This document shows, one piece after another, positions 7,029-38,157 of a DNA stretch of 64,000 nt (positions are counted from its first letter, which is position 1; each line of letters starts with the position of its first letter). The notes under the pieces are model-generated. The model was given only the letters and a program-made list of their open reading frames with translations, was not told the DNA's origin and did no database searches. This DNA is from Myxococcota bacterium (GTDB taxonomy: Bacteria; Myxococcota_A; UBA9042; PHBI01; JAWLBL01). Position numbers and translations under genes: made by a program. Location of the stretch: positions 70,325 through 134,324 of the forward strand of contig JAWLBL010000021.1 in the NCBI GenBank assembly GCA_041687695.1, read 5' to 3'.

Positions 7029-10000
7029 ATGCAGCGCCAGGAGCACCGAAGCAGTCCAGAGGGAGCGCGCAGCGCGGAGGAGAGGTCGCCGCAGCGCGAG
7101 GCCGGGGACGGCGTGCGGGGGCAGCTGCGGGAGCTGCCGTCCTACGCGGCGCAGCGGGCGGCGCTGGTCCCCGGCGGGCCCATCCACCTGTCGCGGCGCC
7201 CGGGCGGCGCGGACGGCGGGCGGTCGCCAGCGGAGGCCTTCGGCCAGGCGACCAGCGGGCCGGCGCGCGAGCTGCCGCACCGCGGGGCGATGGAGCAGGC
7301 CTTCGGGCGTGACCTCGGCGGAGTGCGGGCCTTCGTCGGCGACCCGCAGGCCAGGGCCGGGCTGTCGGCGCTGGGCGCGTCGGGGGCGGCGTCGGGCGGT
7401 GACGTCGCCTTCGCCGACCCCAGCCCGTCCAGGGAGCTGGTCGCCCACGAGGTGACGCACGTCCTGCAGGGCGGCGGCGGCGTGCAGGCGAAGTCCGAGG
7501 TGGCGCCCGCGGGCGACGCCGCCGAGGTCGAGGCCGACCAGGTCGCCGCGCGGGTGGCCGCGGGGCAGCCGGCGGGCCCCATCGGGGCCGCCGGCGGCGG
7601 GCTGCGGCTGAAGAGGGCCCACCGGACGACGCTGGACGGCGGGAAGGTGCGGGCCGACGACGAGGACAAGACGCCGCTGCAGGTGGGCGAGCGCGATCCG
7701 GCGGACCCGAACGTCAGCGTCTCGACGAACGACCTCGGCGACGGGCGGGTGGTGGTCGGGACCGAGAAGAAGAGCGACGCGACCTTCGGGACCGCCTCGA
7801 CCCGCAGCGTGACGACCGACGACAAGGTGGAGGACCCCGTCGCGACGGGGAAGGCCCTGCTGGCCGAGATGAGGTCGGCCACCAAGGACATCGACGAGCA
7901 CCGGCTGCCCGAGCTCGAGGCGCGGAGAGAGCGGCTCGAGGCGGCGAAGGCGACGCCTGAGGGCTCGGCCGAGGCCAACGGGCCGCGGTTCGACGTGGAC
8001 GCCGAGCTGGCGGCGGTCGAGGAGGAGCGAAAGCGCCTCGTGGCCAAGAAGGAGCGCCTGGCGGCGCGCACGGAGGAGCTCGGCGAGCGCCTCGGCGACG
8101 AGGCGGCGGCGAAGGGTCTCACCGTCGAGGAGCTGAAGGCGATCTCGGCCGAGGTCGGCGGGACGAGCGTCGAGGTGGCCTACCGCAGCGAGGGGTCGCA
8201 GACCTTCGAGGAGGGCAGCGGCTTCGCGGTCGAGCACGACGGCGTGCGCATCGAGGGCGGGTCGCTGGTCTCGAAGACCGACGCCGACGGCAACCAGTCG
8301 GGCGAGGGCAAGCGCTACTCGGGCAAGATCGGGGTCAAGGACGGCAGGGTCGGCGGCGAGCTCGAGCAGAAGGCGGCCGACGGCTCGTCGGTCAAGGGCT
8401 CGTTCCACGCCAACGAGGACGGGGCGGCCGCCGAGGGGACCTGGGCGAAGGCCGACGGCCGCTCGACGACCGTGGGTGCGACGGTGGACAAGGACGGCGG
8501 GTCGGCGAGCTACGCCTCCAAGGGCGCCGATGGGGTGAGCCACGAGCTGGGGGCGCACCACAAGAAGGGCAAGGACGGCGCCGAGGACGAGTGGGGCCTG
8601 ACGGCGGGCCTCGGCAAGGCCGACACCGACGCCGACAAGAAGGCCGCGAAGGACAAGGACAACGTCGACGGCAACCTCGAGGCGACGCTGTCGACGACGC
8701 GCGTCGGCGGCAAGGGCGACCTCACGCTGCCGCGGTGGGGCGACGACGCGCGCAGCTTCACGTTCAGCTGCGGCGGCAGCGTCTACATCGACTGCACGGT
8801 GACGGTCTCTGCCAAGGGACCGCCGCCGAAGTACACGCTGGTGGCCAGGGCGCACGGCAGCATCTCGCCGGGCGGCACGCTCAACGGCGAAGAGGGCGGC
8901 GCCGGGGCGAGCGCGACGGCCAAGGTGACGCTGGCGCTCGACAAGACCATCACGCGGGTCTACGACGGCCCGAAGCTCGAGGCGCAGCTCGCGTGCTACC
9001 GCGAGCTCGAGCTGGCGCCGCCGAGCACGCTCGAGAAGTGGCGGCGGGGGCTGGGGCTGCTGGCGGACGAGGGGGCGCTCACGGAGGTGGGCGACAAGGA
9101 CGAGTCGGGCTCGTCGGCGGGCGTCGAGCTGGGCGCCTCGGGCGACGCCAAGCTGGGCGGCGTCGGGGTCGGGGCCAAGGCGAGCTACGAGGGGCAGCGC
9201 AGCGTCCGGCTGACCGAGGAGAAGATCGGGGCCGACAAGAACCGGATCACGGCGCACATCGCGACGGCGCAGGAGGTCTCGGGCGGGGCCTCGGCGTCCG
9301 TGGTGACGGGCGGCGAGGTCACCTACGAGTACGAGTGGGATGAGGCCGAGACGGTCGAGTTCGAGCTGTCGACCAGGGACCCGAAGACCTACGGGGCGAC
9401 CCTGCAGCGCATCCGCGAGGCGACCACGCGCGAGGAGCTCGACGCGCTGGCGATGGCGCTGGGGAGCACGGGCTGGACCTCGGCCGAGGGGCACAGCGAG
9501 ACCGTCGGCGGCAAGGGCACGTTCGAGCAGGACCTCGGGGGCGGGCAGAAGGTCGGGCTCGACGTCGGTGGCAGCAGCACGGACGCGTTCAAGAGCGAGA
9601 TCAGCCTGAAGGACGGCAAGATCGGCGCGAAGGGGTCGGGCACGCAGACGGACGAGCTCGCCGTGTCGTCGGCCGCCGGGACCGAGATGCTGGGGGTCGA
9701 GAACGTCCACGGCGGCGCGGCGAGCAGCGACGGGAGCGAGGCCTCGCTGGAGCTGTCGAGCAAGACCACCGAGAAGACGCCGGGCCTGGGCAGCGGCAAG
9801 AGCCTGGTCGGCGAGGTGATGGCCAGGTCGTCGATCATCGAAGGCGTCCGGTCCTACCTGACCAAGGAGGAGACGACGCTCTCGGGCACCGGCTACAGGT
9901 CGGCGGATGTCTGGCGCCTCGTCGGCTACGCCAGCCAGAAGGGCGTCTGGAGCGGCGCGGTCGGCGTGGCGCTCCCCGGCCCGCCCGCGCAGAAGGCCTG

Positions 10001-11063
10001 GGAGCAGCTCGGTCGCACGCTGCGGAGCCCCGCCCGGAGCCCCGAGGCCGACCGCCTGCACGCCCGCATCGCGGCCGACCCGCAGCTCGACAACAAGACC
10101 AAGGAGCGCCTCGTCGAGGAGCTGGACCTCGCGTTGTCGATGCGCGCGCTGAACCTCTTCCTCAGCCAGGCCGGCAACGACGGCCAGAGCCTCATCCGCG
10201 CGGTCCTCGAGCGGGCCGGCCAGGGCACCCACCGCGGCGGCGTGAAGAAGGCCGCCGGCTCGAGCTGGTACTGGCCGCCCGAGCTGAAGGAGCTCCAGGG
10301 GCGCTGGACGAAGAGCCAGGCCGAGGTCGCCGGGCTCGAGGGCCAGGCGATGAAGCTGCTCGAGCAGGGCCTCGACGGGCGCGACGAGGGGCTGGCGCTC
10401 ATCACCGGCGCCACGAGCCGCCTCGACGGCGTCCTGCGCGACTTCGAGGCCGCGCGGGGCGAGCACTACGTCGACCACCCGCGCGAGTTCGTCGACATGA
10501 AGACGAAGATGGAGGCGAGCCAGCGGCAGGCGCGGAAGGTGCGCGCCGCCTTCGACCAGGCCGCGGTGGAGGTCGAGGACCGCTCGGTCGAGCCGGGCGA
10601 CGGCCCGCCTGCGGTCTGTGAGGCCACGGCGGAACCCGGGCCCGACTGCAGCGAGGAGCGCGCGGCCGCGCACGCAGAGGACCGCGAGCGCGTGGAGACG
10701 GCGCAGCGCCTCGAGCGGGCGCGCAAGATTCAGCAGATGAGCGCCTACTGCCGGGGCTTCAAGCTGCAGGAGACCAAGCTCCTCGGCGAAGCGCGCGACG
10801 CCTTCTTCCAAAGCGACGCGACGCGCATCCTGACGACCTCGCTCGCGCAGGGCTACGACGAATGGATCGGCCACCTGCTCGCTTATCGCGACGCCTACCG
10901 CGACGCCCAGTGGCCGGTCGAGACCTGGAAGATCAGCGCCGACGCCAAGAGCCGCCGCAACCTCTTCTACGAGCCCGACGTCGACGCCTTCGAGAAGGTC
11001 TGGCGCGACGCCCTCGGCAGCGAGCCGCCGTCGACCCTCGTCTGGCGCCTCCGGTCGTACTGA
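7029..11063 (+). CDS. Large (1344 aa) DUF4157-domain protein; Gly/Ser-rich and coiled-coil C-terminal regions, function unknown (putative effector/toxin)
   Basis: The N-terminus matches the DUF4157 signature (LPHRGAMEQAFGRDLGGVRAFVGD...GGDVAFADPSPSRELVAHEVTHVLQG). The ATG at 7029 is preceded by a GAGGAGGGAG Shine-Dalgarno. The ORF-track start at 6945 lies inside the upstream pseudogene and lacks an RBS. Confidence 0.7.
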   Translation: MQRQEHRSSPEGARSAEERSPQREAGDGVRGQLRELPSYAAQRAALVPGGPIHLSRRPGGADGGRSPAEAFGQATSGPARELPHRGAMEQAFGRDLGGVRAFVGDPQARAGLSALGASGAASGGDVAFADPSPSRELVAHEVTHVLQGGGGVQAKSEVAPAGDAAEVEADQVAARVAAGQPAGPIGAAGGGLRLKRAHRTTLDGGKVRADDEDKTPLQVGERDPADPNVSVSTNDLGDGRVVVGTEKKSDATFGTASTRSVTTDDKVEDPVATGKALLAEMRSATKDIDEHRLPELEARRERLEAAKATPEGSAEANGPRFDVDAELAAVEEERKRLVAKKERLAARTEELGERLGDEAAAKGLTVEELKAISAEVGGTSVEVAYRSEGSQTFEEGSGFAVEHDGVRIEGGSLVSKTDADGNQSGEGKRYSGKIGVKDGRVGGELEQKAADGSSVKGSFHANEDGAAAEGTWAKADGRSTTVGATVDKDGGSASYASKGADGVSHELGAHHKKGKDGAEDEWGLTAGLGKADTDADKKAAKDKDNVDGNLEATLSTTRVGGKGDLTLPRWGDDARSFTFSCGGSVYIDCTVTVSAKGPPPKYTLVARAHGSISPGGTLNGEEGGAGASATAKVTLALDKTITRVYDGPKLEAQLACYRELELAPPSTLEKWRRGLGLLADEGALTEVGDKDESGSSAGVELGASGDAKLGGVGVGAKASYEGQRSVRLTEEKIGADKNRITAHIATAQEVSGGASASVVTGGEVTYEYEWDEAETVEFELSTRDPKTYGATLQRIREATTREELDALAMALGSTGWTSAEGHSETVGGKGTFEQDLGGGQKVGLDVGGSSTDAFKSEISLKDGKIGAKGSGTQTDELAVSSAAGTEMLGVENVHGGAASSDGSEASLELSSKTTEKTPGLGSGKSLVGEVMARSSIIEGVRSYLTKEETTLSGTGYRSADVWRLVGYASQKGVWSGAVGVALPGPPAQKAWEQLGRTLRSPARSPEADRLHARIAADPQLDNKTKERLVEELDLALSMRALNLFLSQAGNDGQSLIRAVLERAGQGTHRGGVKKAAGSSWYWPPELKELQGRWTKSQAEVAGLEGQAMKLLEQGLDGRDEGLALITGATSRLDGVLRDFEAARGEHYVDHPREFVDMKTKMEASQRQARKVRAAFDQAAVEVEDRSVEPGDGPPAVCEATAEPGPDCSEERAAAHAEDRERVETAQRLERARKIQQMSAYCRGFKLQETKLLGEARDAFFQSDATRILTTSLAQGYDEWIGHLLAYRDAYRDAQWPVETWKISADAKSRRNLFYEPDVDAFEKVWRDALGSEPPSTLVWRLRSY

Positions 11064-11211
11064 CCGCTGCGCGCGCGCGGTCCGGCCGTGCGCGCGCGCA
11101 GCGCTTGAACCGCGCGGCCCGTGTGCCGGCGCCGCCCGGGCCCTGGCACGACTTTCGCTTTGTACCGCACCCGAGGCCGCGGGGGCCTCACGTCACTTCG
11201 GGAGAGACCTC

Positions 11212-11610
11212 ATGAGACTGTCACTTCGCCTCGCGATCATCGCCGCGGTGCTCCTCGGCTCGGCCGGCTCGGCCTTCGCCGGCGGCCGCACCCTGCGGGT
11301 CCGCATGTACAACAGCAGCACCGTCCAGAAGTCCGACTGCCGGGTCTTCCTGAAGAACCACGGCTCCAAGAAGATCCGCCTCCACGAGACCTTCACCCAC
11401 ACGGCGCCCAGCGGGACCAAGGTCTACACGACCACGATCCCGACCGGCTGGAACCTGGTCGAGGTGAGCTGCCGGGCCAACGGGCCGCGGGCGAAGGGGA
11501 CCATCGACCTGAATACCGAGTCGCTGAGCCAGCGCTTCATCCACTCGGCCTGCGCGTCGAGTCAGCCGGACACCAAGTGCTCCGTCTACAACTACCAGGG
11601 CAACCCCTGA
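11212..11610 (+). CDS. Small secreted protein (signal peptide), unknown function
   Basis: N-terminal signal peptide MRLSLRLAIIAAVLLGSAGSAFA. Protein-like composition, lower GC than the flanks, GGGAGAG RBS. Confidence 0.55.
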   Translation: MRLSLRLAIIAAVLLGSAGSAFAGGRTLRVRMYNSSTVQKSDCRVFLKNHGSKKIRLHETFTHTAPSGTKVYTTTIPTGWNLVEVSCRANGPRAKGTIDLNTESLSQRFIHSACASSQPDTKCSVYNYQGNP

Positions 11611-11636
11611 GCACGCGCCCCCGGGAGGACAGAGCC

Positions 11637-12680
11637 ATGCAACGCATCGCGCTGATGATGACGGTCGGGCTGATCGGCCTCGCCGCCGGCCCCGCCCACG
11701 CGGCCGACAAGTGCGACGAGATCGCCCTCGGCGACAAGGCCGCCTGCAAGGCCGCCTTCGACAAGGAGTGCGGGTCGATGACCCGCGACGCGGATCGCAT
11801 CGGCTGCGAGCGGCGGCTCGTCGACCGGTTCGACTCCTGCGTCAACGGCGACCTCGACAAGGCCTGCGAGGCGGCCTCCAAGGCCTACTGGGAGACCTGC
11901 CGCAAGCTGGGCACGATGGACGACGGCTGGAAGGAGCGCGTCCTGAACTACCCCGAGGCCCGCGAGGGCATGGAGCAGTTCGCCAAGACCTGGGGCGCGT
12001 GCCTCCAGCAGAGCTCGAGCTGTCAGGTCTCGGACAGCTGGATCAGCTATTGCGGCGACCCCGCGCTTCAAAAGGCCAAGAGCAAGTATGTCGAGGAGCT
12101 CGACTTCGCGCTCCGCACGCTCGAGGACAAGAAGCAGCACATCGCCAACGCCAAGGCGAGCAAGAACTTCGAGCTGGCGATGGGCCTCGTCGACGGGGCT
12201 CTGGACAAGCTGCTGGTCTTCTCCGATCTCGCGCGCTCGGTCCCCTGGGCCGACCACCGCAGGGCCGACCTGATGGCGGCCATCGCCGACCTCGAGGCCT
12301 CGCACCAGGACGCCGTCGCGCAGAACGAGGCGCTCATCGCCTCGCGCGTCTGCCCCGCGGGCGCCAACCACGACGCGGCGCGGGCGAAGGCCATCAGCCC
12401 GGCCGTCGAGGCCTTCTTCCACGACGCGGGCGACACGAAGGTGAAGGTCGAGGTCTTCCGCCTGAACGGGCCGAAGACCACCGCGCGCGACTGGCTGCGC
12501 CGAAGCAACATCGAGCACCAGCCCGCGGTGGTCTGCCTCGAGAAGGTCACCCCGCAGCGCAAGTACTGCCAGGTAGCCCGCGTGACGCTGCGCCGCACGA
12601 AGGTCGACGGGGCCGCCTGGAACCCGTGGCGGGTGGGCGTCGGCGAGGTCGACGAGCTGCTCTGCAAGAACGTCAAGTAG
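11637..12680 (+). CDS. Secreted cysteine-rich protein (signal peptide), unknown function
   Basis: ATG at 11637 after GGGAGGACAGAGCC. Signal peptide MQRIALMMTVGLIGLAAGPAHAADKC. Lys-rich protein-like composition. The upstream part of the 11121 ORF overlaps the previous gene out of frame. Confidence 0.6.
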   Translation: MQRIALMMTVGLIGLAAGPAHAADKCDEIALGDKAACKAAFDKECGSMTRDADRIGCERRLVDRFDSCVNGDLDKACEAASKAYWETCRKLGTMDDGWKERVLNYPEAREGMEQFAKTWGACLQQSSSCQVSDSWISYCGDPALQKAKSKYVEELDFALRTLEDKKQHIANAKASKNFELAMGLVDGALDKLLVFSDLARSVPWADHRRADLMAAIADLEASHQDAVAQNEALIASRVCPAGANHDAARAKAISPAVEAFFHDAGDTKVKVEVFRLNGPKTTARDWLRRSNIEHQPAVVCLEKVTPQRKYCQVARVTLRRTKVDGAAWNPWRVGVGEVDELLCKNVK

Positions 12681-12906
12681 CCCGGCGCAGGCGCTCCCAT
12701 GGCCAGGGTGCGCGCGCCCCCTGGCCAGAGGAGCCCTCGATGAAGCGCTGGGAGCTCGTGCTCGCCCTGACGCCGCGCGCGGCCTGCGCGCCGGGGAACC
12801 CCGACAAAGGCGATGTGGGGACGGCGTTGGAGGCCATGTTGGCCTTTCGCGAAGTGGAAGCGACTCGGCCCCTTCTCTAGCGCGGGCGCGTTCACCAAGT
12901 TCAGGC

Positions 12907-15282
12907 ATGACACACGGCCTCCGTTCGAGCTGGCTGCTGCTCGGCCTGGCGCTCGCCGGCCTCCTCGGCGGCGCGGCGCTGTGGCTCGCCGGCGCGCCCG
13001 GGGCGGCCGACGCGCTGTGGCTGGGCGCGACGGCCGTGGCGTTCGTGCCGCTGCTCGTGCGGGTCACGCGCGCCCTCCTCCGGCGCGAGGCGGGGGTCGA
13101 CCTCATCGCCGTGCTGGCCCTGGCCGGCGCGATGCTGCTGGGCGAGTACCTGGCCGGCGCCGTCATCGGGCTGATGCTGGCCAGCGGCCGGCTGCTCGAG
13201 CGGCGCGCCAGCGCGCGGGCCATGCGCGAGCTCACGGCGCTGCTGGCGCGGGCGCCGAGGGTCGCCCACCGCGTCGAGGGCGAGGCCGTGGTCACGGTCG
13301 ACGTGGACGCCGTCGGTCCGGGCGACCTGCTGCTGGTCAAGGAGGCCGACGTGCTCCCGGTCGACGGCCTGCTCGCCGACGAGCACGCGACCCTCGACGC
13401 GTCGGCGCTGACCGGCGAGGCGCGGCCGGTCGAGCGCGCCTCGGGCGACCGGCTCGACAGCGGCACGGTCAACGTCGGCCGCGCGTTCCGGATGCGCGCG
13501 ACGGCGTCGGCCGCCGAGAGCACCTACGCCGGCGTCGTCCGGCTGGTCGCGTCGGCCCAGCACGACAAGGCGCCGGTCGCCCGGCTGGCCGACCGCTACG
13601 CTGCGCTGTTCATCCCGTTCACGCTGGCGGTGGCCGCGGCGGCCTGGGCCCTGTCCGGCGACCCGGTGCGCGCCCTCGCCGTGCTGGTCGTGGCGACGCC
13701 CTGCCCGCTGCTGCTCGCCGTGCCCATCGCCATCGTCGCCGGGGTCTCCCGGGCCGCCCGCCGCGGCGTCATCGTCAAGGGCGGCGGGGCGCTGGAGCTG
13801 CTGGCGCGGGCCGACCGGGTGTTCCTGGACAAGACGGGGACGCTGACGTCGGGCGCGGCGAGCCTGTCGCGCGTCGCGACGACCGGCGGGTGGACCGACG
13901 AGGCGAGGCTGCTCGCGCTCGCCGGCTCGGTCGAGCAGGTCTCGTCCCACGTGCTCGCCGGGGCGATCGCGCGCGCCGCGCGAGCGCGGGGCCTGGCGCT
14001 GTCCTTCCCGGCCGAGGTGCGCGAGGAGCCGGGCGCGGGCGTCGAGGGGACGGTCGACGGCCGGCGCGTGCGGGTGGGCCGCTACGACTGGGTGACGCGG
14101 GACGCCGAGGCCGACGACGCCGAGGCGGGCTTTCGCCGTCGGGCCACGCGCACGCTGGGGTCGGCGGTGTTCGTGGCCGTCGACGGGGCGCTCGCCGGGG
14201 CGCTGCTCCTCGAGGACCCCATCCGGCTGGAGACGCCGCGCACCCTGCGCGCCCTGCGCCGCGCCGGGGTGCGGCAGATCGACGTGCTGACGGGGGACCA
14301 CCCCGCCGTCGCCGCCTCGGTGGGCGCCGCGCTGGGCCTCGACCGGGTCCACGCGCAGCTGTCGCCCGAGGAGAAGGTGCGGACGGTGGCCGAGGCGCGG
14401 TCGGCCGGGTCCAAGGTCATGGTCGGCGACGGCATCAACGACGCGCCGGCCCTGGCGGCGGCCGACGTGGGGGTCGCCATGGGGGCGCGCGGTGCGACCG
14501 CCTCGTCCGAGGCCGCGGACGTGGTGCTGACGACCGACCGCTTCGACCGGCTGGTCGACGCGATCCTGATGGCGCAGCGGTCGCGCAGCGTGGCCTTGCA
14601 GAGCGTGGCGCTCGGCATGGGGTTGTCGGTGGTCGCGATGGGCGCGGCGGCCTTCGGGCTGCTCGCGCCCGTGGTCGGGGCGTTCCTGCAGGAGGGCATC
14701 GATCTGCTGGCCATCGGCTGGGCGCTGCGGGCCCTGGGGCCGGGCGCGGCCGAGCGGGCGCGCGACCGCAAGCGCCGGGTCCTGAGCCCCGAGGCCGCCG
14801 CGCACCTGGCCGCCGACCACGAGCACCTGGTCCCGACGCTCGAGCGCTTCCGGAACCTGGCCGACCAGCTCGACGCGCTGCCGCGGCGGCAGGTCTGCGA
14901 GGAGCTGCGGTCGTTGAACCGCTTTCTGAAGACCGATCTCCTGGCCCACGAGCGGGCCGACGAGGCCGAGGTCTACCCGGCCCTCGCCGCGCGGCTCGAG
15001 GGCGACGATCCGCTGGGGACCATGAGCCGCACGCACCAGGAGATCTTCCACCTGGCGCGGCTGCTCGATCTGCTGCTCCACGAGCTGCCCGCCGAAGGCC
15101 CCGAGCCCGAGGACCTGCCCGACCTGCGGCGGCTGCTCTATGGCCTCCACGCGGTGCTGCGCCTGCACTTCGCGCAGGAAGAGGAGCTGTACCAGAGCGT
15201 GACCGACGACGGCGGCGGCCGGCGGCGCCCCCGACGCGCCCGCGGCCCGAGCCCCCTCGGCCCGCCCGTCACCAGCCGGTGA
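12907..15282 (+). CDS. P1B-5-type heavy-metal P-type ATPase with C-terminal hemerythrin-like domain
   Basis: DKTGTLT phosphorylation motif, TGEARP actuator motif and MVGDGINDAPALAAADVGVAMG hinge. TM motif TPCPLL (PCP rather than CPC). No N-terminal HMA domain. C-terminal H..HxxxE...H..HFAQEEE hemerythrin-like signature. Confidence 0.9.
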   Translation: MTHGLRSSWLLLGLALAGLLGGAALWLAGAPGAADALWLGATAVAFVPLLVRVTRALLRREAGVDLIAVLALAGAMLLGEYLAGAVIGLMLASGRLLERRASARAMRELTALLARAPRVAHRVEGEAVVTVDVDAVGPGDLLLVKEADVLPVDGLLADEHATLDASALTGEARPVERASGDRLDSGTVNVGRAFRMRATASAAESTYAGVVRLVASAQHDKAPVARLADRYAALFIPFTLAVAAAAWALSGDPVRALAVLVVATPCPLLLAVPIAIVAGVSRAARRGVIVKGGGALELLARADRVFLDKTGTLTSGAASLSRVATTGGWTDEARLLALAGSVEQVSSHVLAGAIARAARARGLALSFPAEVREEPGAGVEGTVDGRRVRVGRYDWVTRDAEADDAEAGFRRRATRTLGSAVFVAVDGALAGALLLEDPIRLETPRTLRALRRAGVRQIDVLTGDHPAVAASVGAALGLDRVHAQLSPEEKVRTVAEARSAGSKVMVGDGINDAPALAAADVGVAMGARGATASSEAADVVLTTDRFDRLVDAILMAQRSRSVALQSVALGMGLSVVAMGAAAFGLLAPVVGAFLQEGIDLLAIGWALRALGPGAAERARDRKRRVLSPEAAAHLAADHEHLVPTLERFRNLADQLDALPRRQVCEELRSLNRFLKTDLLAHERADEAEVYPALAARLEGDDPLGTMSRTHQEIFHLARLLDLLLHELPAEGPEPEDLPDLRRLLYGLHAVLRLHFAQEEELYQSVTDDGGGRRRPRRARGPSPLGPPVTSR

Positions 15283-15361
15283 GTCATGTCGCGCGACCTC
15301 TCGGCGCCGGTGCCGTCCAAGGACGTGTACCTGGTCTTGCAGATCCTCCAGGCGACGACCA

Positions 15362-20867: not shown

Positions 20868-23800
20868 ATGAGCGTCACAGAACACCTTGAAGGCCTTGCC
20901 GCCGCGATCAACGATGGTCGCCCCCTCGTCGTGCTCATGGGCCAGGATGCGTGGCGGGTCGGCACTCGGCCGGATCCTGCGGTACTCGCAGCGCTCAAGC
21001 GTGCCGAGAGATTGGAAGTGGACTCCGATCCGAGAGGGCTCGTTTCTCTGCTCTCCGTTGAGCCCCTGCCCGAAGACTTCTTTCAATGGCTCGCTGACCA
21101 GTACCTTCGGCAGGTCGAACCTGAGTGGTTTGAGCCCATCGCACGCCTCCCATTAAACGCATTCTTCACGACTAGCGTGGACCCTACACTTTCGAGGGCG
21201 CTTCGCGTTGGGGGCCGTGATGTTGAGGCAGTTCTGAGCAAGTCGGACACCCCCGCGGCGCCGCGCCACCGACGCAATCTCCACTTGAGCTACCTTTTCG
21301 GTCGCGCCGGTGAAATGAACCTCAGTGAGGCGCCGCCGAAGTCGACTCAGGAGTTGCGACGACGAACTGCATTGCACGCGAATGCCCTCCTCGCCCGACT
21401 CGTCGAAACCACCACGTCGCTCGGGGTGCTCGCTATTGACGGGTTGACCTGTGGTAGCGACTGGCTGTCGGCCGAATCGCTGTATGGCGTGCTGTCCGCG
21501 TTCAAGCCCGGCCAAGTCTTCTGGTTCGGGTGGGACTCTTCGCTGAGCACAGGCGACGCGGCCCTGATGGAGGAACTGGCGGCGCCCAATGGCCCCATCA
21601 CTTTCGTGCCCGAGAGGCTCTCTAGCTCTCTCCGCGCGCTCACACTGGCGGGCAGAATTGAGCCGCTTCGCGCGGCGTCCTTGGCGGCGACGAACGCCGT
21701 GACTATCGGCGAATCGCTCCTCGAGATTGAGCCCTCGACGCGACTCAAGACCTCGACGGCCGCTAGTATCGTCGACGACACGTGGCTCGCGCCACTTCCC
21801 GTGCTCGGTGAGGATGAGTTCTTCGAGGAGTTCCGACGATTCCACGGTCAGGTGGAGGAAGCGCGCCGGCTCGTCGAGGGGGTGAGGCGGGGGTTCGCCA
21901 TAGAGCGGGCCTTTGAGAATCGGCTTCGCGATCGAGTCCAGAACGCACTCAAGGACGCACCGCGGCTCAAGGAACCGATTCTGCTTCATGGTCAGTCCGG
22001 AACAGGCAAGAGCATCGCACTCGCGCGCCTCGCGCTCTCCGTTCGGAAGGATCGCCGATATCCGGTGCTAGTTGCCAGCCGCGCATCACGGTTGCCCGCG
22101 GTAGACGAGCTTGACGAGTTCTGTATGCGCGCCGAGGAGGCCGGCGCCGAAGCAACCCTTCTTATCTGTGATGCGAATGCGCAGGCGGCTCGGTATCGGG
22201 ACCTTCTGCGGGGCTTTCGAAGTCGAGGAAGACGAGTCGTTGTGGTCGGTAGCGCGTATCGCCTCATTGACCAGAAGCAGGCTGCGGGAGAAGGAAGGCA
22301 TCTCATCGAGGCGCCCTCGACGCTGGACGACGAAGAAGCTGCGAATCTCACCGCGGTTCTCCGGGAGCACGCCAGCCTCAAGTACACGTCCTCAACATCT
22401 CAATTTCTGCTGCCGGCCGTCTACCGCATTCTGCCGGAGGTGCGCCCTCGATTGGCCGCCGGTCTGGCTCACGAAGCGCGGGTCGCGGAGGATGATCTCA
22501 GGTCACGCGGGACAACCATTCGGCAGGGCAAGCCCCAGCCCGCCGGTGCGCTTGGACAGGCGCTCATAGATGCGGGCTTGATTGAACCGAAAGAACTTCT
22601 CGATCTGCGACTTCAGGAGTTCATGGGAGCCCTGAGCGACGCGGCATCGAAGGCGATCGACTACGTAATGGTGCCAGGGAAGCTGGACTGCCCTGTTCCC
22701 ATCAACCTGCTGATGCGGGCGGTAGGTGGGAGCGAGAGCCTGGTTGATATCGCATCCCTGTTCTCTGGAATCGACCTGTTTCGATGGAGCACAAACGACG
22801 AGGACGATATCTTCATTCACCCTCGCCTTCGAGTCGAAGCAGAGTTGGTCACAGCTCGACGGCTCGGAACGTCGACTGCTGAGGCACAGATAGCGGTTGA
22901 TCTCCTGAAAGCAGCGAACCCCACTACACATGGAAGCTGCGAGCGACGGTTCGTCCTGGACCTTGTTCATCGTCTGGGTCCCGACGGCCCCTACGGACCG
23001 TGCTACGCCGACCACTATCTGGACGTCGCACGCGCGCTTACGGAAATGCGCGAGCGGCGCGGGCTCAGCGACCCGAGCCTCATGCTCCAGGAAGCTCGTC
23101 TCAGACGACGGGTTTTTCGAGATGCCCGGCCGAACGAACGGCACAACCCTGCGACTATCCTGGACGAGGCACGGCAGATCGTCGATCTCGCCCTCGACGA
23201 GTTCGGCGCGGCCCGCTCGCCTGGGTTGCGCCGCGTTTGCTCAATGCTTCGGGTGGAGCGCGCCGCCATCTACGGCTTTCGCGCTGTGCAACAGCTACAG
23301 TCTGGTGCATCCCAAGATGAGACTTGGCAGTACTACGAGGCAGCACGAGACGCTGCTCGCAGTGCCTTGTTCTCTGCGGACGCGTACCACGCGATCGACG
23401 TGAGCCTTTGGATACCGCGCCGACTGCTCGAGGATGGGAACTGGGATTCCGTCCGGAAGGCGGAACTGACCGCCGACATATGGGATGGTCTCGAGCGCGT
23501 CGACGCTGACGATTTGGACGCAGACCAACGTGGCGTCTTCGAGGAGCAACGCTTCAAGGTCTCGAAAGCACTTGGGAGCGACGAGCTTGAATTGGCGGCT
23601 CTCCAGGCACTCGAGTCGATGGGGTCATCCGCGGGGCTGTTCCTGCAAGCGCGAGCGATCGGCGGCGATCTGCGGGGCCGCGGGATGGCGGACGATGGTG
23701 AACGGGAGCGAGCACGACGTGTAGTCGGGTTCCTAACTGAGAAGGGACCGCGGATCCGGGAGGACGCACGATGTCTTCGGTATCTCCTGCGCGCGACCTG

Positions 23801-24299
23801 GATCAGCGCGGCAGGTAGCTACTTGTTCGGAGGGGAACGACTTCCTCTGCCGGGTTCCGAGTCGGACCTCAGAGAGCTTCTGGACATCGTCGACACCCTC
23901 GCCAACATCGAAGGCTCGTTGGGAGACCCGCGAACCGAGTACCTGCGAGCCGTGTTGATGTGGCGGTTGCAGCGGGAGAACGCTGCGCGCGAGGTTTGGC
24001 GCGCCTTGAGCCAAGACACGGCATTCAACGACCCCCGACGCATCGTTCGACACCATGTATGGAGTGAGAGCGAAGGGAAACCGCGAGTCTTCTATGGCCG
24101 AGTCGTGCGCGATGACCTGGAGCGTGGGCGAGCCAAAGTTCAGGTGGACGACATCCGGCAGGAGATAGAGATCCTACAGCGCGACTTCCCTGACCTGGAG
24201 CTGCGGCGGGGCGCCTCGATTCGCGGCGGGTTCTACATCGCCTTCAACTTCATCGGGCCGATTGCGGAGCCACTTATCAGAAGAGGGGGTGGCCGATGA
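20868..24299 (+). CDS. SIR2-like + STAND P-loop NTPase (Avs5-like antiphage defence protein), 1143 aa
   Basis: N-terminus resembles SIR2_2 (GRPLVVLMGQDAW ~ GxLVLFvGAGvS; FFTTSVDPTLSRAL ~ iTTNYDxLLE; NLHLSYLFG ~ KLHGS). Walker A is LLHGQSGTGKSIALARLA and Walker B is ATLLICDANAQ. Long C-terminal helical region. Lower GC than the genome. Confidence 0.6.
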   Translation: MSVTEHLEGLAAAINDGRPLVVLMGQDAWRVGTRPDPAVLAALKRAERLEVDSDPRGLVSLLSVEPLPEDFFQWLADQYLRQVEPEWFEPIARLPLNAFFTTSVDPTLSRALRVGGRDVEAVLSKSDTPAAPRHRRNLHLSYLFGRAGEMNLSEAPPKSTQELRRRTALHANALLARLVETTTSLGVLAIDGLTCGSDWLSAESLYGVLSAFKPGQVFWFGWDSSLSTGDAALMEELAAPNGPITFVPERLSSSLRALTLAGRIEPLRAASLAATNAVTIGESLLEIEPSTRLKTSTAASIVDDTWLAPLPVLGEDEFFEEFRRFHGQVEEARRLVEGVRRGFAIERAFENRLRDRVQNALKDAPRLKEPILLHGQSGTGKSIALARLALSVRKDRRYPVLVASRASRLPAVDELDEFCMRAEEAGAEATLLICDANAQAARYRDLLRGFRSRGRRVVVVGSAYRLIDQKQAAGEGRHLIEAPSTLDDEEAANLTAVLREHASLKYTSSTSQFLLPAVYRILPEVRPRLAAGLAHEARVAEDDLRSRGTTIRQGKPQPAGALGQALIDAGLIEPKELLDLRLQEFMGALSDAASKAIDYVMVPGKLDCPVPINLLMRAVGGSESLVDIASLFSGIDLFRWSTNDEDDIFIHPRLRVEAELVTARRLGTSTAEAQIAVDLLKAANPTTHGSCERRFVLDLVHRLGPDGPYGPCYADHYLDVARALTEMRERRGLSDPSLMLQEARLRRRVFRDARPNERHNPATILDEARQIVDLALDEFGAARSPGLRRVCSMLRVERAAIYGFRAVQQLQSGASQDETWQYYEAARDAARSALFSADAYHAIDVSLWIPRRLLEDGNWDSVRKAELTADIWDGLERVDADDLDADQRGVFEEQRFKVSKALGSDELELAALQALESMGSSAGLFLQARAIGGDLRGRGMADDGERERARRVVGFLTEKGPRIREDARCLRYLLRATWISAAGSYLFGGERLPLPGSESDLRELLDIVDTLANIEGSLGDPRTEYLRAVLMWRLQRENAAREVWRALSQDTAFNDPRRIVRHHVWSESEGKPRVFYGRVVRDDLERGRAKVQVDDIRQEIEILQRDFPDLELRRGASIRGGFYIAFNFIGPIAEPLIRRGGGR

Positions 24300-25513
24300 G
24301 CTTCGAGAGCATTCTACGCTGTCACCAGCGGATCAACGGACTGTCCAGAAGCCTCCTCGGGCGTCCCGCGTTCGACGAGCTTCACGTCGCGCTCCCTGAC
24401 CCAGCGAGTCCCGAACCTGGCTTTATCCGGGCGACCTCGTGGCTTTACTGCCTTTACTTCGAAGCGGGGCGAGTCAGCATAACGTTCTTGCGCCGTCTCG
24501 GAGAGGCCTACTCGTTGATCGACCGCGCTGAGATCGACGAGCACGTTGAGGTCGTGCGGTGCCTTCGAACAGAACTCCACCACAACCTCGGGTTCGTGGA
24601 TTCAGATCAGGCTGCGCGGGCGTCCGCAGAGGGATGGCGTCGGAGGGTCTGCGGCACTGCGATTCCTCGAGACGACGCGCAGTGGAGCAAGTGCTATGTC
24701 GGCTTGATCGAGAAGGCCAACCACTTCCTGAGCGCCATCGATGAGGTCGTTCGACGTATTGAGGCCGACGGCGACAAGGCCGGACAGCACCTTGAAGAGT
24801 GGCTTCGACGTCTCGACCGTAGTTGGCCAGCGGCAGCCTTCGACCCTGTGGTCGATGAGGCGAAATACCACCTTGGCCGCCAGGGCCTCAACACCGTTGA
24901 GTTCAGGCAGCGCCATGTCGACCGGTGGCGCGCCCAACTCGAGCTCATGGAGGATGGGTTCGACTTTGCCGAAGAGGCTACTCGACTTGTCGAGAAGTCG
25001 CTGCTGGACGAAGACAGTTTCGTTCTTCCGATAACGGGCCGCGACATTGTGAACGCTCTGCAGATTGCATCTGGGCCGCGAATTGGGACGCTTCTCGAAC
25101 AGGCGCAACGGAGGTTTGCGGCTCAGCCCTGCACCAGGGAAGAGTTGCTCGCTCACCTGGAACGCAGCCGCCCAGATTCGGATTTCGACAGCCTTGTGGA
25201 CGCGGCGAAGGTACGCTTTGGACGAGACGATCTTAATACAGTCAGGTTTCGGCAGTGTCATGTGGACCACTGGCGCGAGCAGCTCGACCTCATGGAAGAC
25301 GACGTGGACTTCGATGACCAGGCGACGCGCCTAATCGAGAAGACGTTGACAGACGAGGTGCTTCTGCCGATCACGAGTCAGGATGTTTTGGACGAACTGC
25401 GGATCAAGCCTGGCCGCCGGGTAGGAGCACTCCTCGTGGCGGCTCGCAAGCGATTCGAGTCTGCGCCGTGCACCAAGGAGGTGCTGCTGGAGTATCTCGC
25501 TGCGGTCCCCTGA
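24296..25513 (+). CDS. Partner protein co-transcribed with the SIR2-STAND gene; contains an internal tandem duplication of a ~110-aa module
   Basis: Start overlaps the upstream stop (ATGA). Two repeats (...LNTVEFRQRHVDRWRAQLELMEDGFDF...LPITGRDIVNALQIASGPRIGTLLEQAQRRF...REELLAHLE and ...LNTVRFRQCHVDHWREQLDLMEDDVDF...LPITSQDVLDELRIKPGRRVGALLVAARKRF...KEVLLEYL). Confidence 0.6.
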   Translation: MSFESILRCHQRINGLSRSLLGRPAFDELHVALPDPASPEPGFIRATSWLYCLYFEAGRVSITFLRRLGEAYSLIDRAEIDEHVEVVRCLRTELHHNLGFVDSDQAARASAEGWRRRVCGTAIPRDDAQWSKCYVGLIEKANHFLSAIDEVVRRIEADGDKAGQHLEEWLRRLDRSWPAAAFDPVVDEAKYHLGRQGLNTVEFRQRHVDRWRAQLELMEDGFDFAEEATRLVEKSLLDEDSFVLPITGRDIVNALQIASGPRIGTLLEQAQRRFAAQPCTREELLAHLERSRPDSDFDSLVDAAKVRFGRDDLNTVRFRQCHVDHWREQLDLMEDDVDFDDQATRLIEKTLTDEVLLPITSQDVLDELRIKPGRRVGALLVAARKRFESAPCTKEVLLEYLAAVP

Positions 25514-29782: not shown

Positions 29783-29787
29783 AAAGA

Positions 29788-29828: not shown

Positions 29829-29864
29829 TGCCTTTCTGCCTTTCTGCCTTTCTGCCTCAGTGCC

Positions 29865-32471: not shown

Positions 32472-32683
32472 GCGCAGCTCCTGGTGGCTGACGAAGCGCG
32501 CCGTCAGCCGGTCACGACCCCCTCGGGTCGCTGCCCCCTCGCGCCCCGAGTCCCCCTCGGAGCGGCGCGGACACTCCCACCTTCCCGAGTGGGTCGCAAG
32601 GGGGGCCGGGCACATCACGCGACCGGGCGGGCGGCCGGGGCCGGAGGCTGCGACGAGCGCGGGCTCGCCGGCCGCGCTGGCGC

Positions 32684-33409: not shown

Positions 33410-33504
33410 GGCGCGCGCATCGTAGGGCGACGGACTTCTCAGGCCAAGGCGACCGTGATAGATACGACCTATTCACACACGCACGGGTTTTGGGGAGGTC
33501 GGCC

Positions 33505-36500
33505 ATGAGCCACGAGCGGGACGCCCAGGCGCAGCCGGAAGACCGCGCGATCGCGCGCACGCCTTCGAACGCGAACGCTCAGTCGACGGAGCCCTCGCGC
33601 GGCGCGGCGCTCAAGCCCGCGCTGCGGCAGCTGGGCGCGGCGGGGGGCTACCAGGCCCAGGCGGCCTTCCTGGCGCCTGGCGCGGTGCAGGCCGACGGCG
33701 GCGCGGTGCAGGGCGGCCAGGACGCGCAGGCCATCGCCCAGGCCGGCGTCCGCGGCGGCGGCGGCGCCCTGCCCCACGCGGGGGCCATCCAGGCCTCCTT
33801 CGGTCGCTTCGACGTCGGCGGGGTGCGGGCGCACGTGGGCGGCGCGGCGGCCGACGCCTCCAAGCAGCTGGGCGCCAACGCCTACGCCACGGGCGACGCG
33901 GTCGGGTTCGCCGGCGCGCCCAGCCTGCACACGGCGGCCCACGAGGCGGCCCACGTGGTGCAGCAGCGCGCGGGCGTGCAGCTCGAGGGCGGCGTCGGCG
34001 CCGAGGGGGACGCCTACGAGCGGCACGCCGACGCGGTGGCCGATCGGGTCGTGGCCGGAGCGTCGGCCGAGGAGCTGCTGGCCAGCGGCCCGGGCGGTGG
34101 CGGCGCGGGGCCGGCGGTACAGCGCGAGGCGGCGCCGGGGGCGGGGCCGGTCGTCGGGACCGTCTACACGCTGGACGGCGACTGCCAGTGGCGCTTCGAG
34201 GCCGACGGCGGCTGGACCTTCCTCCGCGACGGCAAGGCGGTGCAGACGTTCCGGCCGGGCAGCGAGACCTGCGCCACCGTCGGCGCGCAGTACGAGAAGA
34301 AGCACGGCGGCGTGGTCCCCGCGGCGGCGCCGGCGCAGGCGCCCGAGGCTTCGGCCGGGAGCGAGGCGCCCGCGGCTTCGGCCGGGAGCGAGGCGCCCGC
34401 GGCGGCCGAGGCGGGCAGCGAGGCGGCGCCGGTGGCGACGCCGCCGGGCGGGGTCATCGAGCACGCGCGCTGTGTGGACGCCAACGCCTACCTGCGCGAG
34501 GGGCCGCCCAGCGGGGCGCGGGACGCGCAGCGCCGCAACGTCCCGCAGGGGCGCTACGTCACCTGGCTGGGGACGGCGCGGACCAAGGCCGGAGAGCTGG
34601 CGCACGTCCTGTACCGCGAGGGGGGCGAGGTCATCGACGGCTGGTCGGGCACCGGCAACTTCGCCGGGCGCGGGCCGCTGCCGGCCGAGGAGTGGGCGCG
34701 GCTGTCCAAGGCCGAGGCGCCGCCGCTGACCACGGCCGAGATCACGGCGCGGGTCCAGGCGCCGGACGCGGCCGAGCAGGAAGACGACGCGCAGATCCGG
34801 GCCGACCGCGACGCGCGGCGGGCGGCGGGCGAGACCGGCGGCGGCGTCGGGGCGCTGTCGGCGACGCCGGCGGGCTTTCTGACGGTGGGCGCGGACGCGG
34901 GCCGCGTGACCGTGCACGAGGGGCCCAGCGGCGGCGCGCGGGTGGGCGAGGTGGCCGCCGGGGACCACGTGGCGATGACCGGGTCGCGGCAAGAGGTGGG
35001 CGGCGCGACCTGGGTCGAGGTGGACCTGGGTGATGGCGTGCTCGGGTGGCTGGACGCGGCGGCGACCAACGCGGCCGAGGTGCTGGGCGAGGTGGCGGCG
35101 GCGGCCGAGGCCGAGGCGGCGCGCGAGACGGCGCGGCAGGAGGCCGAGCTGTATTCGGAGATCGTCGCGCCCGAGCCCGAGCAGGTCGCGGCGGCGCCGG
35201 CCGGGCTGAAGGCCCGGGCGCACCTGGTGGTGGCGGGCGACGGGACGGCGCCGGTGTACGACGGGCTGCTGTCGGAGCGGACGCTGGGGCAGCTGCCGGC
35301 GGCGGCGGGCGAGGCGCGGCACTGGGAGCTGGTGGCCGAGATCGGGCCGGGCGACGGCGAGCGGCGCGAGGTGCTGTTCGGGGGGCGGCCCGGGTTCGTG
35401 GCGCGGGCGGCGCTGCGCGAGGCGACGCCGGTCGACGTGATGATGAACGCGCAGGTGCTGGCCGAGGACGAGGTCCCAGCGGCGCGGGCGGCGCTGGCGG
35501 CGATGACCGACGAGCCGGCGCGGCGCGAGGCCTACATGCTGCGGCTGCAGGCGATGGCGCCGGGGCTCGGGCGCGAGGACCAGGCGAGCTTCTCGCACGG
35601 CGGGCGCGGGGCGCCGATGAACCAGCTGGCGGCGTGCCTGGCCTTCCTGGGCGTGCCGAACCCGTACCCGGACCAGCCGTTCGCGGACGCGCTGGAGCTG
35701 GTGCGGCTCGAACGGGGGCTGTCGCCGGCGATGGACGTGGCCGGGTGGGCGGCGCTGGTGACGCAGCTGGGGGTCGGGTGCCAGGCGCTGGGCGACGCCA
35801 GCCCGGCGGCGCTGAAGGGGCACCTGGCGGCGGGCGCGTCGGTGATGCTGACCGTCGGCGGCGGGGCGTGGGTGCGGGTGCGCGGGGTCGGCGAGGACGG
35901 GGCGGTGCAGGTCGACGGGCTCGGCGGCGGGACGTCGGTGGCGCCGGCGGGGGCGCTGGCCGGTGCCCAGGGGTGCGTGTTCGCGGTGCCGACCGAGGCG
36001 GCGCTGGACCCGACGCTGCTGGAGACCGACGTGGCGCTGGACGCGGCGACGGCGAGCGCCGGGTACGACGAGATGTACGCGGCGACCAGCGCGGCCGAGA
36101 GCGACTGGTACGAGAAGAAGCGCGGGGACGCGGAGCTGGCGGGGCACGTGCCGGAGGCGGGGTCGCCGCTGGCGTTCGCGGGGGCGCCAGCGGACAAGAT
36201 CGAGCAGGCGTTCGAGCGGGTGATGGGGCCGCCGGGGGCGGACGTGCGGGCGGGGTTCGCGCGGGGCGCAGGGTTCTTGGGGCCGCTGTTCGCGGTGGCC
36301 GAGCCGGCCGAGGCGCTGGTCGAGGGGCGGCAGGCGGCGCGCGAGCGGCTGCGCGGGTGGCTGCGTGACGCGGTGGCGAAGGCGGTCGAGGGGCCGGGCG
36401 GGGTGGCCGAGGCCGGGGCGGCGGTGCAGTGGCTGGAGGCGAGCGGGGCGATCGGCGGCGAGCCGGTGGTGACCGAGGCGACGCGGGACGTGCTGCGGGC

Positions 36501-38157
36501 GGCGCTGGTGCCGATGAAGGGCGAGGGGGAGGAGGCGGCGGCCGAGGGGCCGGTGGAGCTGCCGACGCAGACGCGGGCGCAGCTGGAGCAGCGGCTGGCG
36601 GGGGTGGACCTGAAGGCGGTGCTGGCGGTGCCGGTCGAGGCGGTCTACTCGGGCGAGCACCTGGGGGCGATGCGGCAGGCGCTGGAGCAGCCCGAGGTGA
36701 AGGCGCTGTGGGCGGCGGCGGGGGCGGCGTACGCGGCGCGGATGAAGGTGGTCGACCAGCAGGCGAACACCGGGGTGGTGGCGTCGTTCTGGTCGGCGCT
36801 GGGCTACGACGCGGGGACGACCCAGGTCGAGGGGTACGGCGAGCTGCCGGCGGCGCTGCGGTCGTCGGACGCGCTGACGCAGGCGTGGAACATCAAGCGG
36901 CTGGCGGACGAGGCGCGGTGGGGCGAGGTGTCGGCGGCGTGCGACGCGCTGTTCGTGGGGCTCGAGGGGGCCATCGGGCACGAGCGCGGGGCGGGCGCGG
37001 GGCACGACGCGAGCGCGGCGCTGGCCGAGTTCAAGGGGGCCGAGACGTTCGCGCCGGGCGGCGAGGGGAGCCGGGTGCGGACGCTGGACTTCGCGCAGCT
37101 GAAGTACGAGCAGGAGCTGGGGCAGACGGAGAACGTGGCGGCGCAGGTGGCTCGGGGCGTCGAGCCTGGGGACATCCAGGGCACGCAGTACAAGTGGTCC
37201 GACGAGGCGGCGGCGGCGCAGATCGCGGGCGACAAAGACGCCTACCAGTTCTGGTGCTCGGGCTTTTCGATCTGGACGCTGGCGTCGGCCGGCTACGACC
37301 TGACCAAGGAGATCAAGGGCAAGGACGGCAAGGTCCACGGCTACCTGGAGGCGGGCAAGAAGACGCCCAAGGCGCTGACGATGCAGGGGCTGGTCGACGG
37401 GTGGAACGAGATGGTGGGCGCGATGAGCCTCATCACGGACCCGCGCGACGGGGTGATCAACGAGCACACCGGGCAGCCGCACGTGGCGCCGCCGAAGGGC
37501 AAGCCGCTGACCGAGATCGACGGGGTGGTGGTGCGCATCGAGCACACCGAGGTGACGGTCAGTGGCAAGAAGCAGAAGACGGCGACCAGCGGGCACGTGG
37601 ACCAGCGCAACTACGTGCAGGGCGAGGAGATCGACCCGACGCAGGACAGCGACGCGGTCAAGGGGGCCGTCGCGGCGTTCGTGGCGACCGGCGTCGGCTA
37701 CGAGGTGCCGTTCGACGAGCAGAAGCCGGGCGACTTCGGGCAGTACCGCGCCTGGGAGGCGGCGCCCGAGCTGCCCGGCGGCGGCTACACGGGCAAGGGG
37801 CACGCCTACCAGGTCTACTCGGTCACGGCGGTCGGCACGGCGAACTTCGGCAAGCCCGGCAAGGGCAGCCCCGAGCTGGTGACGCCCGGCAAGGACCTGG
37901 GCGACGGCTGGCAGGAGGGCGCCGTGTTCGAGATCACGATGCACACCGACCCGGCGCTGGTGCGCGACACCACGTTCAAGAGCCGCAAGGTCATCGACTC
38001 GAACACCGGCGGCGGCAAGGGCGGCGACGCGGGCGTGTACGTCCGCGAGAGCAAGACCACCGCGGCCGTCGAGAAGGGCACGACGCGTCACTACACCGGG
38101 CGCCTGTACGAGAGCCCCTGGGCGAACCGGGCGACCGCGGCGGCCAAAGACGAGTAG
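33505..38157 (+). CDS. Giant (1550 aa) DUF4157-domain protein with SH3b-like and C-terminal NlpC/P60- or CHAP-like (CSGF) region; putative polymorphic toxin/peptidoglycan-hydrolase effector
   Basis: DUF4157 signature ([18 protein letters not shown]...[25 protein letters not shown]). ATG at 33505 after GGAGG. ...[18 protein letters not shown]3b-like segment. ...[20 protein letters not shown] Cys-peptidase-like motif near the C-terminus. Confidence 0.7.

Follow-up and report, generated by a model that had tools for sequence, protein, structure and literature searches.

Two large DUF4157-headed proteins of a Myxococcota bacterium as candidate orphan cargo of an extracellular contractile injection system

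The stretch of DNA analysed here (64,000 bp, positions 70,325 to 134,324 of the forward strand of contig JAWLBL010000021.1, assembly GCA_041687695.1; hereafter the window) originates from a Myxococcota bacterium and encodes two very large proteins that each open with a DUF4157 domain: protein 1 (7029..11063, forward strand, 1344 aa) and protein 2 (33505..38157, forward strand, 1550 aa). Both open reading frames (ORFs) display a strong coding signal in the codon-position G+C filter, with a third-position G+C fraction (GC3) of 0.97 for protein 1 and 0.96 for protein 2, and the ATG start codon of each is preceded by a good Shine-Dalgarno sequence. A recorded NCBI protein of 1344 aa is identical to protein 1 across the 1114 residues queried, and a recorded protein of 1550 aa, located on the same NCBI contig as the former record, clusters at 90% or above with the ortholog of protein 2. 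Orthologs of both proteins, approximately 98% identical, are present with conserved gene order in assembly GCA_041690335.1. The parts of the two proteins are given below, where A6 is the alignment of the DUF4157 heads, HMM stands for hidden Markov model, and identifiers starting with P and L denote related proteins and the loci of related genes, respectively.

7029..7280 (+): protein 1, N-terminal region (aa 1-84), 80% disorder-promoting and 13% hydrophobic residues, no signal peptide
7236..7625 (+): protein 1, DUF4157 head, Pfam core at nt 7281-7481, 120.8 bits with the family HMM from A6
9126..11060 (+): protein 1, C-terminal module of ~640 aa, collinear with the C-termini of P0021 and P0029
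33505..33729 (+): protein 2, N-terminal region, no signal peptide, 75% of the first 85 aa being disorder-promoting
33730..34137 (+): protein 2, DUF4157 head, Pfam core at nt 33790-33975, 199 bits with the family HMM
34903..35058 (+): protein 2, possible SH3b-like segment (aa 467-518), 21.8 bits with SH3_3 (PF08239) against a cut-off of 27
37186..38154 (+): protein 2, C-terminal domain (aa 1228-1550), predicted NlpC/P60/CHAP-like papain-fold hydrolase with large insertions
37255-37257, from 37726, and 37801-37803 (+): protein 2, Cys1251, PGD motif and His1433, respectively

An earlier note on this DNA, made from its letters alone, had proposed that both proteins are headed by DUF4157, and this was confirmed by Pfam. 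Each protein has a single significant match to PF13699 (the DUF4157 model, now renamed eCIS_core, with PVC-metallopeptidase as an older label), at aa 85-151 in protein 1 (E=2.3e-11, 44.1 bits) and at aa 96-157 in protein 2 (E=1.3e-9, 38.5 bits). On sequence grounds these matches are regarded as genuine rather than due to chance, because both exceed the gathering cut-off of 22 bits and keep the HExxH motif (HEVTH at nt 7446-7460 in protein 1, HEAAH at nt 33940-33954 in protein 2) together with the invariant downstream Glu. In alignment A6, which has a mean column identity of 64% over the head, the His, Glu, His and downstream Glu positions are invariant, and all four are retained by both proteins. 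Compared with those of 21 homologues, the head of protein 2 shows 59-68% identity, while that of protein 1 is divergent, with 42% identity.

The approximately 85 residues in front of the heads are predicted to be unstructured, disorder having been judged by residue composition only, and a composition scan found no hydrophobic signal stretch in this region of either protein. Both N-termini carry the motif [FY]xxQxAxLxP, as YAAQRAALVP at nt 7143-7172 in protein 1 and as its counterpart at nt 33649-33678 in protein 2, and this motif is shared with the relatives P0004 and P0012. A second N-terminal motif type, PGKxTLT(S/E)xL, was observed ahead of DUF4157 in many other relatives (among the N-termini of P0002-P0070), and it also heads many proteins of the P0128-P0166 set in which Pfam detects no DUF4157 and which end in the C-terminal domain of protein 2. 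The two motif types may represent export or loading signals of two kinds.

The last 323 residues of protein 2 have no match in Pfam (including PF00877 and PF05257), in NCBIfam or among PDB sequences, the best PDB profile match being a sub-threshold one to CwlO (E=0.26). An exhaustive profile search identified 112 representative proteins that contain this domain, nearly all of which are 400-800 aa long and carry it at the C-terminus behind other N-termini; among the 92 relatives scanned, five possess a DUF4157 domain, one a LysM domain, and one matches NLPC_P60 at 5.7e-5. Such recurrence of one C-terminal domain behind other N-termini, in approximately 110 proteins, would be the behaviour of a mobile toxin module. 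Two carriers of the domain whose genomic context was looked up, P0123 and P0128, lie on short contigs that reveal little of their surroundings. In 35 diverse members the invariant positions are C24, P181-G182-D183, Q186, G205-H206 and a few more, alignment positions C24 and H206 corresponding to Cys1251 and His1433 of protein 2. With the alignment deepened by the exhaustive search, AlphaFold2 returned a confident model of the domain (pLDDT 84.7, pTM 0.87), compared with a pLDDT of 36 in a first attempt on a four-sequence alignment. In the predicted fold a helix starts at the invariant Cys, and the strand that follows PGD carries the Gly-His pair; this is the order of elements found in NlpC/P60 enzymes, and the sub-threshold profile alignment to CwlO reproduces it.

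Because the confident model, the invariant Cys/His pair and the order of elements agree, the proposal that protein 2 ends in an NlpC/P60-, CHAP- or Tae-like domain is accepted at the level of predicted fold and putative catalytic Cys/His dyad. It did not carry over to the family HMMs, all of which the domain fails to match. With the NlpC/P60 (C40) and CHAP (C51) peptidases and the T6SS (type VI secretion system) amidases Tae3 and Tse1 the domain would share a papain-like core, and it resembles them in the 'xCSGF' context of the Cys and in the PGD motif ahead of the Gly-His strand; it differs from them in being approximately 2.5 times the canonical size, with big insertions, and its dyad comes without a third catalytic residue having been found. 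The approximately 1000 residues between the head and this domain are Ala/Gly-rich and contain no recognisable domain. The SH3b-like segment claimed for this region did not hold up, its sole SH3_3 match falling below the gathering cut-off; precomputed SH3_3 annotation does exist on some shorter family members. Three SH3b repeats were also considered and rejected: one segment alone scores, and two visually similar segments gave nothing.

In protein 1, the last ~640 residues match, at 21-24% identity and up to the final Tyr, the C-termini of P0021 and P0029, both of which are headed by DUF4157. This module has no match in Pfam, NCBIfam or PDB, the PDB profile search giving sub-threshold hits only, and a word-based homology search with the body of the protein (aa 231-1344) recovered nothing except protein 1 itself.

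Both genes belong to a large family. With protein 2 as the query at least 924 proteins were found at E<=1e-3; the best 120 of them are 850-2700 aa long, and those with a named source come from metagenome-assembled genomes (MAGs) of Kofleriaceae or Myxococcales. As judged by BLAST coverage, the relatives align to protein 2 only over query residues ~50-230, i.e. the head. Behind this head they carry unrelated C-terminal Pfam domains that include lipase/phospholipase, M23 peptidase, VanY, PG_binding_1 and OmpA as well as Zeta toxin, AHH nuclease, UCH, protein kinase, annexin and APH. A conserved N-terminal region is thus joined to variable C-terminal domains across the homologues, the arrangement by which polymorphic toxins are recognised. 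A scan of species-representative genomes brought in 299 or more additional copies; nearly all of the top 80 are from MAGs of Kofleriaceae, Haliangiales, Nannocystaceae, Polyangia and unclassified Myxococcales, and even inside this sample a genome often has two or three copies. The complete chromosome OW818691.1 carries at least three family members, and the bacterium of the window is a putative member of this Myxococcota group. About a quarter of the 97 DUF4157 ORFs in the fetched loci exceed 1000 aa, and lengths of 1000-2700 aa are common in the family; since such lengths are frequent among the relatives, size alone does not distinguish the proteins of the window.

Several family members were found to contain two or three complete DUF4157 domains (P0002; L040:5879-10588; L003:9956-13846; L002:9680-14803; L081:8033-12853; L084:7673-11131; L004:9776-14110), with lipase and OmpA-like domains annotated between or after the heads in the proteins of L003 and L002. 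These proteins resemble poly-effectors whose DUF4157 domains could serve as proteases that process the chain between domains.

The genomic context of the family was sampled in 89 loci, 85 of them with flanks of up to 10 kb and four from IMG/VR. The latter four came from an alignment-based scan of viral contigs, one of them adjoining a sheath gene, while a scan of the same contigs with a single protein returned nothing. Clustering of 909 ORFs revealed as recurrent neighbours Ser/Thr kinases, sensor kinases and Cys-rich repeat proteins, which are large paralogous families common in Myxococcota, and in addition one specific family of AAA ATPases of 640-720 aa, composed of a winged-helix domain and AAA domains. 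In L030, L031, L051 and L085 a gene for this ATPase immediately precedes a short DUF4157 gene on the same strand; elsewhere it adjoins one. In seven of the 89 loci the neighbouring ATPase aligns with Afp15 (E 1e-62 to 1e-70), over both AAA domains in most of the seven and near full length in L030. The DUF4157 partners are short in most of these loci (326-583 aa). No sheath, tube or baseplate genes were found within the flanks of up to 10 kb around the ATPases, and no structural family of contractile injection systems (CIS) is represented by more than one of the 75 ORFs that were scanned in eight candidate ATPase loci. The pairs may represent satellite modules composed of a loader and its cargo. 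Sheath and tube genes themselves adjoin a family member in only two of the 89 loci, a Myxococcales MAG (L060) and an IMG/VR contig (L091), where the DUF4157 gene is located approximately 3 kb from the 5' end of an operon for an extracellular contractile injection system (eCIS). The homologues are consequently not housed consistently in eCIS loci; consistent housing there would, according to the earlier note, have made them ordinary cargo.

L030:7643-9754, L031:7827-9839, L051:7554-9575 and L085:7272-9533: Afp15/Pvc15-like ATPases
L016:4750-7362, L084:5407-7602 and L034:3-1364: further Afp15/Pvc15-like ATPases
L060, 2-5096 (-) with 8369-9811 (+): DUF4157/eCIS locus, with a putative DUF4255-like gene followed by sheath and tube genes
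L091, 6959-9451 (+) with 12341-13936 (+): DUF4157/eCIS locus

The linkage to eCIS genes exceeds what chance would provide: by our own rough estimate, which assumes a single eCIS operon per 10-Mb genome, approximately 0.3 loci would be expected within 5 kb of that operon, against two observed, to which the seven ATPase pairs are added. A metagenome scan with the sheath proteins of L060 and L091 recovered 80 eCIS loci, none of which shows, within 10 kb of its sheath gene, an Afp15-like gene or a DUF4157 gene of the family type; we consider this result uninformative, because cargo and Afp15 genes normally lie at the extreme 3' end of their operons, which span 20 kb or more, and most of the contigs are short.

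The earlier note had taken the two proteins for a distinct class of giant effectors. The observation is real, but the architecture has already been described for DUF4157 and the class is not new. Geller et al. (2021) identified DUF4157 as a core eCIS-associated domain with a very high odds ratio and described proteins with an N-terminal DUF4157, a C-terminal toxin and linkers 'occasionally more than 1000 aa'; their supplement lists MXAN_4488, a DUF4157 gene of 5091 nt (1696 aa), as the first gene of the eCIS locus of Myxococcus xanthus, the same operon position as that of the DUF4157 genes in L060 and L091. DUF4157 was found in 36% of the eCIS-associated toxins (EATs) by Danov et al. (2024), and it is among the trafficking domains of polymorphic toxins listed by Nachmias et al. 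The proteins of the window resemble EATs such as EAT14, and also MXAN_4488, in their domain order and in having long linkers, which in the published proteins can exceed 1000 aa, and a predicted peptidoglycan hydrolase, EAT10, exists among the EATs as well, the sources being silent on whether it carries DUF4157. Unlike EATs, which are defined by eCIS proximity (88% of those published lie within 10 genes of an eCIS operon, partly by definition), the genes of the window and approximately 90% of their relatives are near no CIS gene.

A close parallel in overall plan is provided by Cgo1 and Cgo2, the cargos of the AlgoCIS of Algoriphagus machipongonensis, in which, according to a 2026 preprint, DUF4157 is preceded by a disordered N-terminal loading sequence and followed by a variable C-terminal domain. 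Cgo2 (1228 aa) is loaded in the tube lumen, and its loading needs the N-terminal region while DUF4157 is dispensable. The three-part plan, with a large variable C-terminus and, as predicted from composition, a disordered N-terminus, is shared by both proteins of the window. In contrast to the Cgo genes, which are inside the CIS cluster, the window genes are not part of one; moreover, N-terminal loading sequences are system-specific and unrelated, and the C-terminal domains are unrelated too. With polymorphic toxins of the Rhs, CdiA, MafB and LXG types the family shares a conserved N-terminal trafficking region with interchangeable C-terminal toxins, including the occurrence of the C-terminal domain of protein 2 behind different N-termini, but it differs from them in that a cognate immunity gene was not recognised directly after the window proteins. 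Modestly new are a family of NlpC/P60-like toxin domains so far without annotation, a dispersed expansion specific to this lineage, proteins with several DUF4157 domains, and pairs of Afp15-like and DUF4157 genes that stand alone.

On balance we favour the reading that both proteins are orphan eCIS-type polymorphic toxins loaded in trans, with a peptidoglycan-directed cysteine hydrolase in protein 2 and a putative effector module in protein 1. Regarding how the proteins are delivered, what they target and cut, and whether they are toxic at all, we infer the following scheme. The two genes would be members of the multi-copy DUF4157 toxin family that is mainly found in Haliangiales/Kofleriaceae-like Myxococcota. 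The unstructured N-terminus, which has neither a Sec nor a Tat signal, would be the loading sequence recognised by an ATPase of the Afp15/Pvc15 AAA+ type, and the proteins would leave the cell through an eCIS encoded elsewhere in the genome, the genes in the window being 'orphan' cargo genes. The conserved head, which resembles a zinc metallopeptidase, would play an accessory role in processing or refolding the toxin or in keeping it inactive, loading in the one system tested being possible without it, and the long body, variable across the family, would end in the effector domain. That of protein 2 would most likely cut peptide stems or amide bonds in the peptidoglycan of a prey or competitor bacterium, while that of protein 1 would be the ~640-aa module common to two other family members.

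Several observations weigh against this reading. The 64 kb of the window yielded no gene for a sheath, tube or baseplate, in agreement with the earlier note, nor one for a spike or of the DUF4255 or Afp15 type, when plausible ORFs were compared with Pfam and all six frames were searched by phmmer with Afp1-16 of Serratia entomophila pADAP, and the ortholog loci of both proteins are likewise without eCIS genes. Neither sheath genes nor an Afp15-like ATPase are present in 80 of the 89 related loci, approximately 90% of the copies thus being dispersed. Both window proteins do without the PGKxTLT motif that most relatives have at their N-terminus. A peptidoglycan hydrolase would be useless in the cytoplasm and needs to be delivered to the periplasm, and the DUF4157 candidate cargo BDI_2459 was reported to be active only when fused to a periplasmic translocation tag. 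Finally, family searches of the downstream genes revealed no recognisable immunity gene 3' of either protein, and those genes do not recur together with the toxin domains. Confidence in the orphan eCIS-cargo reading is only moderate: the producer would have to encode an eCIS, periplasmic delivery is needed and an immunity gene was not recognised.

Among the alternatives, the one that survives best, which we nevertheless consider unlikely, is that both are enzymes of predation or competition that leave the cell independently of any contractile system, for example through lysis, outer-membrane vesicles or another pathway, with DUF4157 in this lineage as a self-processing module that frees the enzyme domains. 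It would account for the absence of CIS-related neighbours around approximately 90% of the 89 loci, for the several copies per genome scattered among housekeeping genes, for the polyprotein-like appearance of members with two or three DUF4157 domains, and for a C-terminal repertoire rich in extracellular lytic enzymes; it also fits the dispensability of DUF4157 for AlgoCIS loading and the entry of Haliangium in the table of Geller et al. (2021), where its genomes are eCIS-negative (0/2). Against it stand the lack of a signal peptide or known alternative export signal in the two proteins and the linkage to sheath and Afp15-like genes in excess of rough chance. The literature, moreover, holds no DUF4157 domain so far shown to have protease activity, and the published toxicity of Cgo1 is independent of its HExxH motif.

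Less probable still is the notion that DUF4157 has become uncoupled from the eCIS operon in Haliangiales/Kofleriaceae-like bacteria, so that dozens of dispersed orphan giants, the poly-effectors among them, and the ATPase pairs together constitute a distributed predation arsenal whose members are either loaded in trans on a single distant CIS or exported without a CIS and self-processed, with DUF4157 as the protease that releases them. We find it improbable, to a further degree, that the proteins are type VI effectors in which the DUF4157 head is an adaptor or processing domain for the VgrG/PAAR spike. Such a route would deliver the amidase into the periplasm of a neighbour, which is the right compartment. 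However, no VgrG, PAAR, Hcp or TssB/C family and no other T6SS marker, such as MIX or FIX, or neighbour was found in the scanned ORFs of the window, no homologue of Afp8, Afp9 or Afp10 is present in the window or in the 85 flanked loci, and the genes around the family members in those loci include no recurrent T6SS family. The recurrent neighbour is instead the Afp15-like ATPase, which is eCIS-specific, and a length of 1300-1550 aa with a disordered N-terminus matches the plan of eCIS cargo. Least probable of all, and by some distance from the favoured reading, is that these are not toxins but envelope or developmental proteins of the producer carrying DUF4157 by chance, for instance a GntR-regulated peptidoglycan-remodelling enzyme: the order GntR, protein 2, membrane protein and Ppx/GppA is kept in two related genomes within a housekeeping neighbourhood, no immunity gene was recognised and NlpC/P60 enzymes are usually housekeeping autolysins, but this synteny was seen solely between 98%-identical genomes and hence has little weight, the lack of a signal peptide leaves the hydrolase of protein 2 no evident route to its own periplasm, the C-terminal shuffling, with nucleases and Zeta toxin included, is typical of conflict proteins, and an RHS toxin adjoins protein 1.

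If the two proteins are indeed orphan eCIS-type toxins, the known class of such toxins with a DUF4157 head gains two members, and the family of domains of the protein 2 type (~112 representatives, no Pfam model) could be defined as a new toxin domain. Surveys limited to the surroundings of eCIS operons would then probably undercount the myxobacterial arsenal, because most genes of the family in predatory-type myxobacteria are far from injection-system genes. The pairs of Afp15-like and DUF4157 genes without structural genes hint at satellite cargo-loading modules. Current models are not overturned, and the role of DUF4157 becomes somewhat more approachable, because the multi-DUF4157 proteins would be natural substrates for testing self-cleavage.

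The immediate neighbourhoods of both genes are largely as noted earlier. Protein 2 is transcribed divergently from a GntR regulator across a 95-bp gap, an arrangement that is kept in the 98%-identical ortholog locus (L001), and is followed by a multi-pass membrane protein for which 10 transmembrane segments had been noted and approximately 8-10 hydrophobic segments were counted in a simple hydropathy scan; beyond it come Ppx/GppA, a metallophosphoesterase and other housekeeping genes. Two small proteins follow protein 1, both with N-termini of the signal-peptide type, as expected for the secreted proteins proposed at this position. The analysis lent no support to a part of these neighbours in immunity or regulation.

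3..6086 (+): RHS-repeat protein, C-terminal 2028 aa, directly upstream of protein 1 (PF05593, E=3.7e-17)
6307..6573 (+): 88-aa ORF separating the RHS gene from protein 1, gene also in ortholog locus L086
11212..11610 (+): 132-aa protein with a signal-peptide-like N-terminus MRLSLRLAIIAAVLLGSAGSAFA, GC3 0.95, gene also in ortholog locus L086
11637..12680 (+): 347-aa Cys-rich protein with a signal-peptide-like N-terminus, GC3 0.97, gene also in ortholog locus L086
32684..33409 (-): GntR/FCD regulator (PF00392, 1.6e-16; PF07729, 8.9e-15)
38247..39275 (+): multi-pass membrane protein of 342 aa, kept in L001

The membrane protein has no match in Pfam or NCBIfam. It was considered as a recurrent immunity partner of the C-terminal domain of protein 2 and rejected, because the gene that adjoins another member of this domain family is not similar to it. 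The two small proteins 3' of protein 1 also match no family (NCBIfam for both, Pfam for the 347-aa protein). The RHS-repeat protein is represented in full by its ortholog of 3432 aa, which contains TSP_3 and RHS repeats; its C-terminal tip has no Pfam domain. The 88-aa ORF that follows it matches no family either and is a possible candidate for an RHS immunity gene. The RHS gene and protein 1, both of the toxin type, form a small toxin island.

Downstream of this toxin island, the gene at 12907-15282 (forward strand) encodes a P-type (E1-E2) ATPase with a hemerythrin domain joined to its C-terminus, an unusual fusion that is kept in the ortholog locus. An antitoxin of the Xre/MbcA/ParS type (PF09722; 15362-15793, reverse strand) is located between this fusion and a cupin protein, with no recognisable toxin gene of the RES/MbcT type beside it. 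The window has a G+C content of approximately 73% and contains, at ~20-28 kb, an island of lower G+C content (61-64%) that encodes a 1143-aa protein of the nSTAND NTPase5 type (20868-24299) and a 405-aa internally duplicated protein (24296-25513). Because the ortholog contig in GCA_041690335.1 stops near the point where this island begins, the region suggests a variable or mobile insertion of the defence type.

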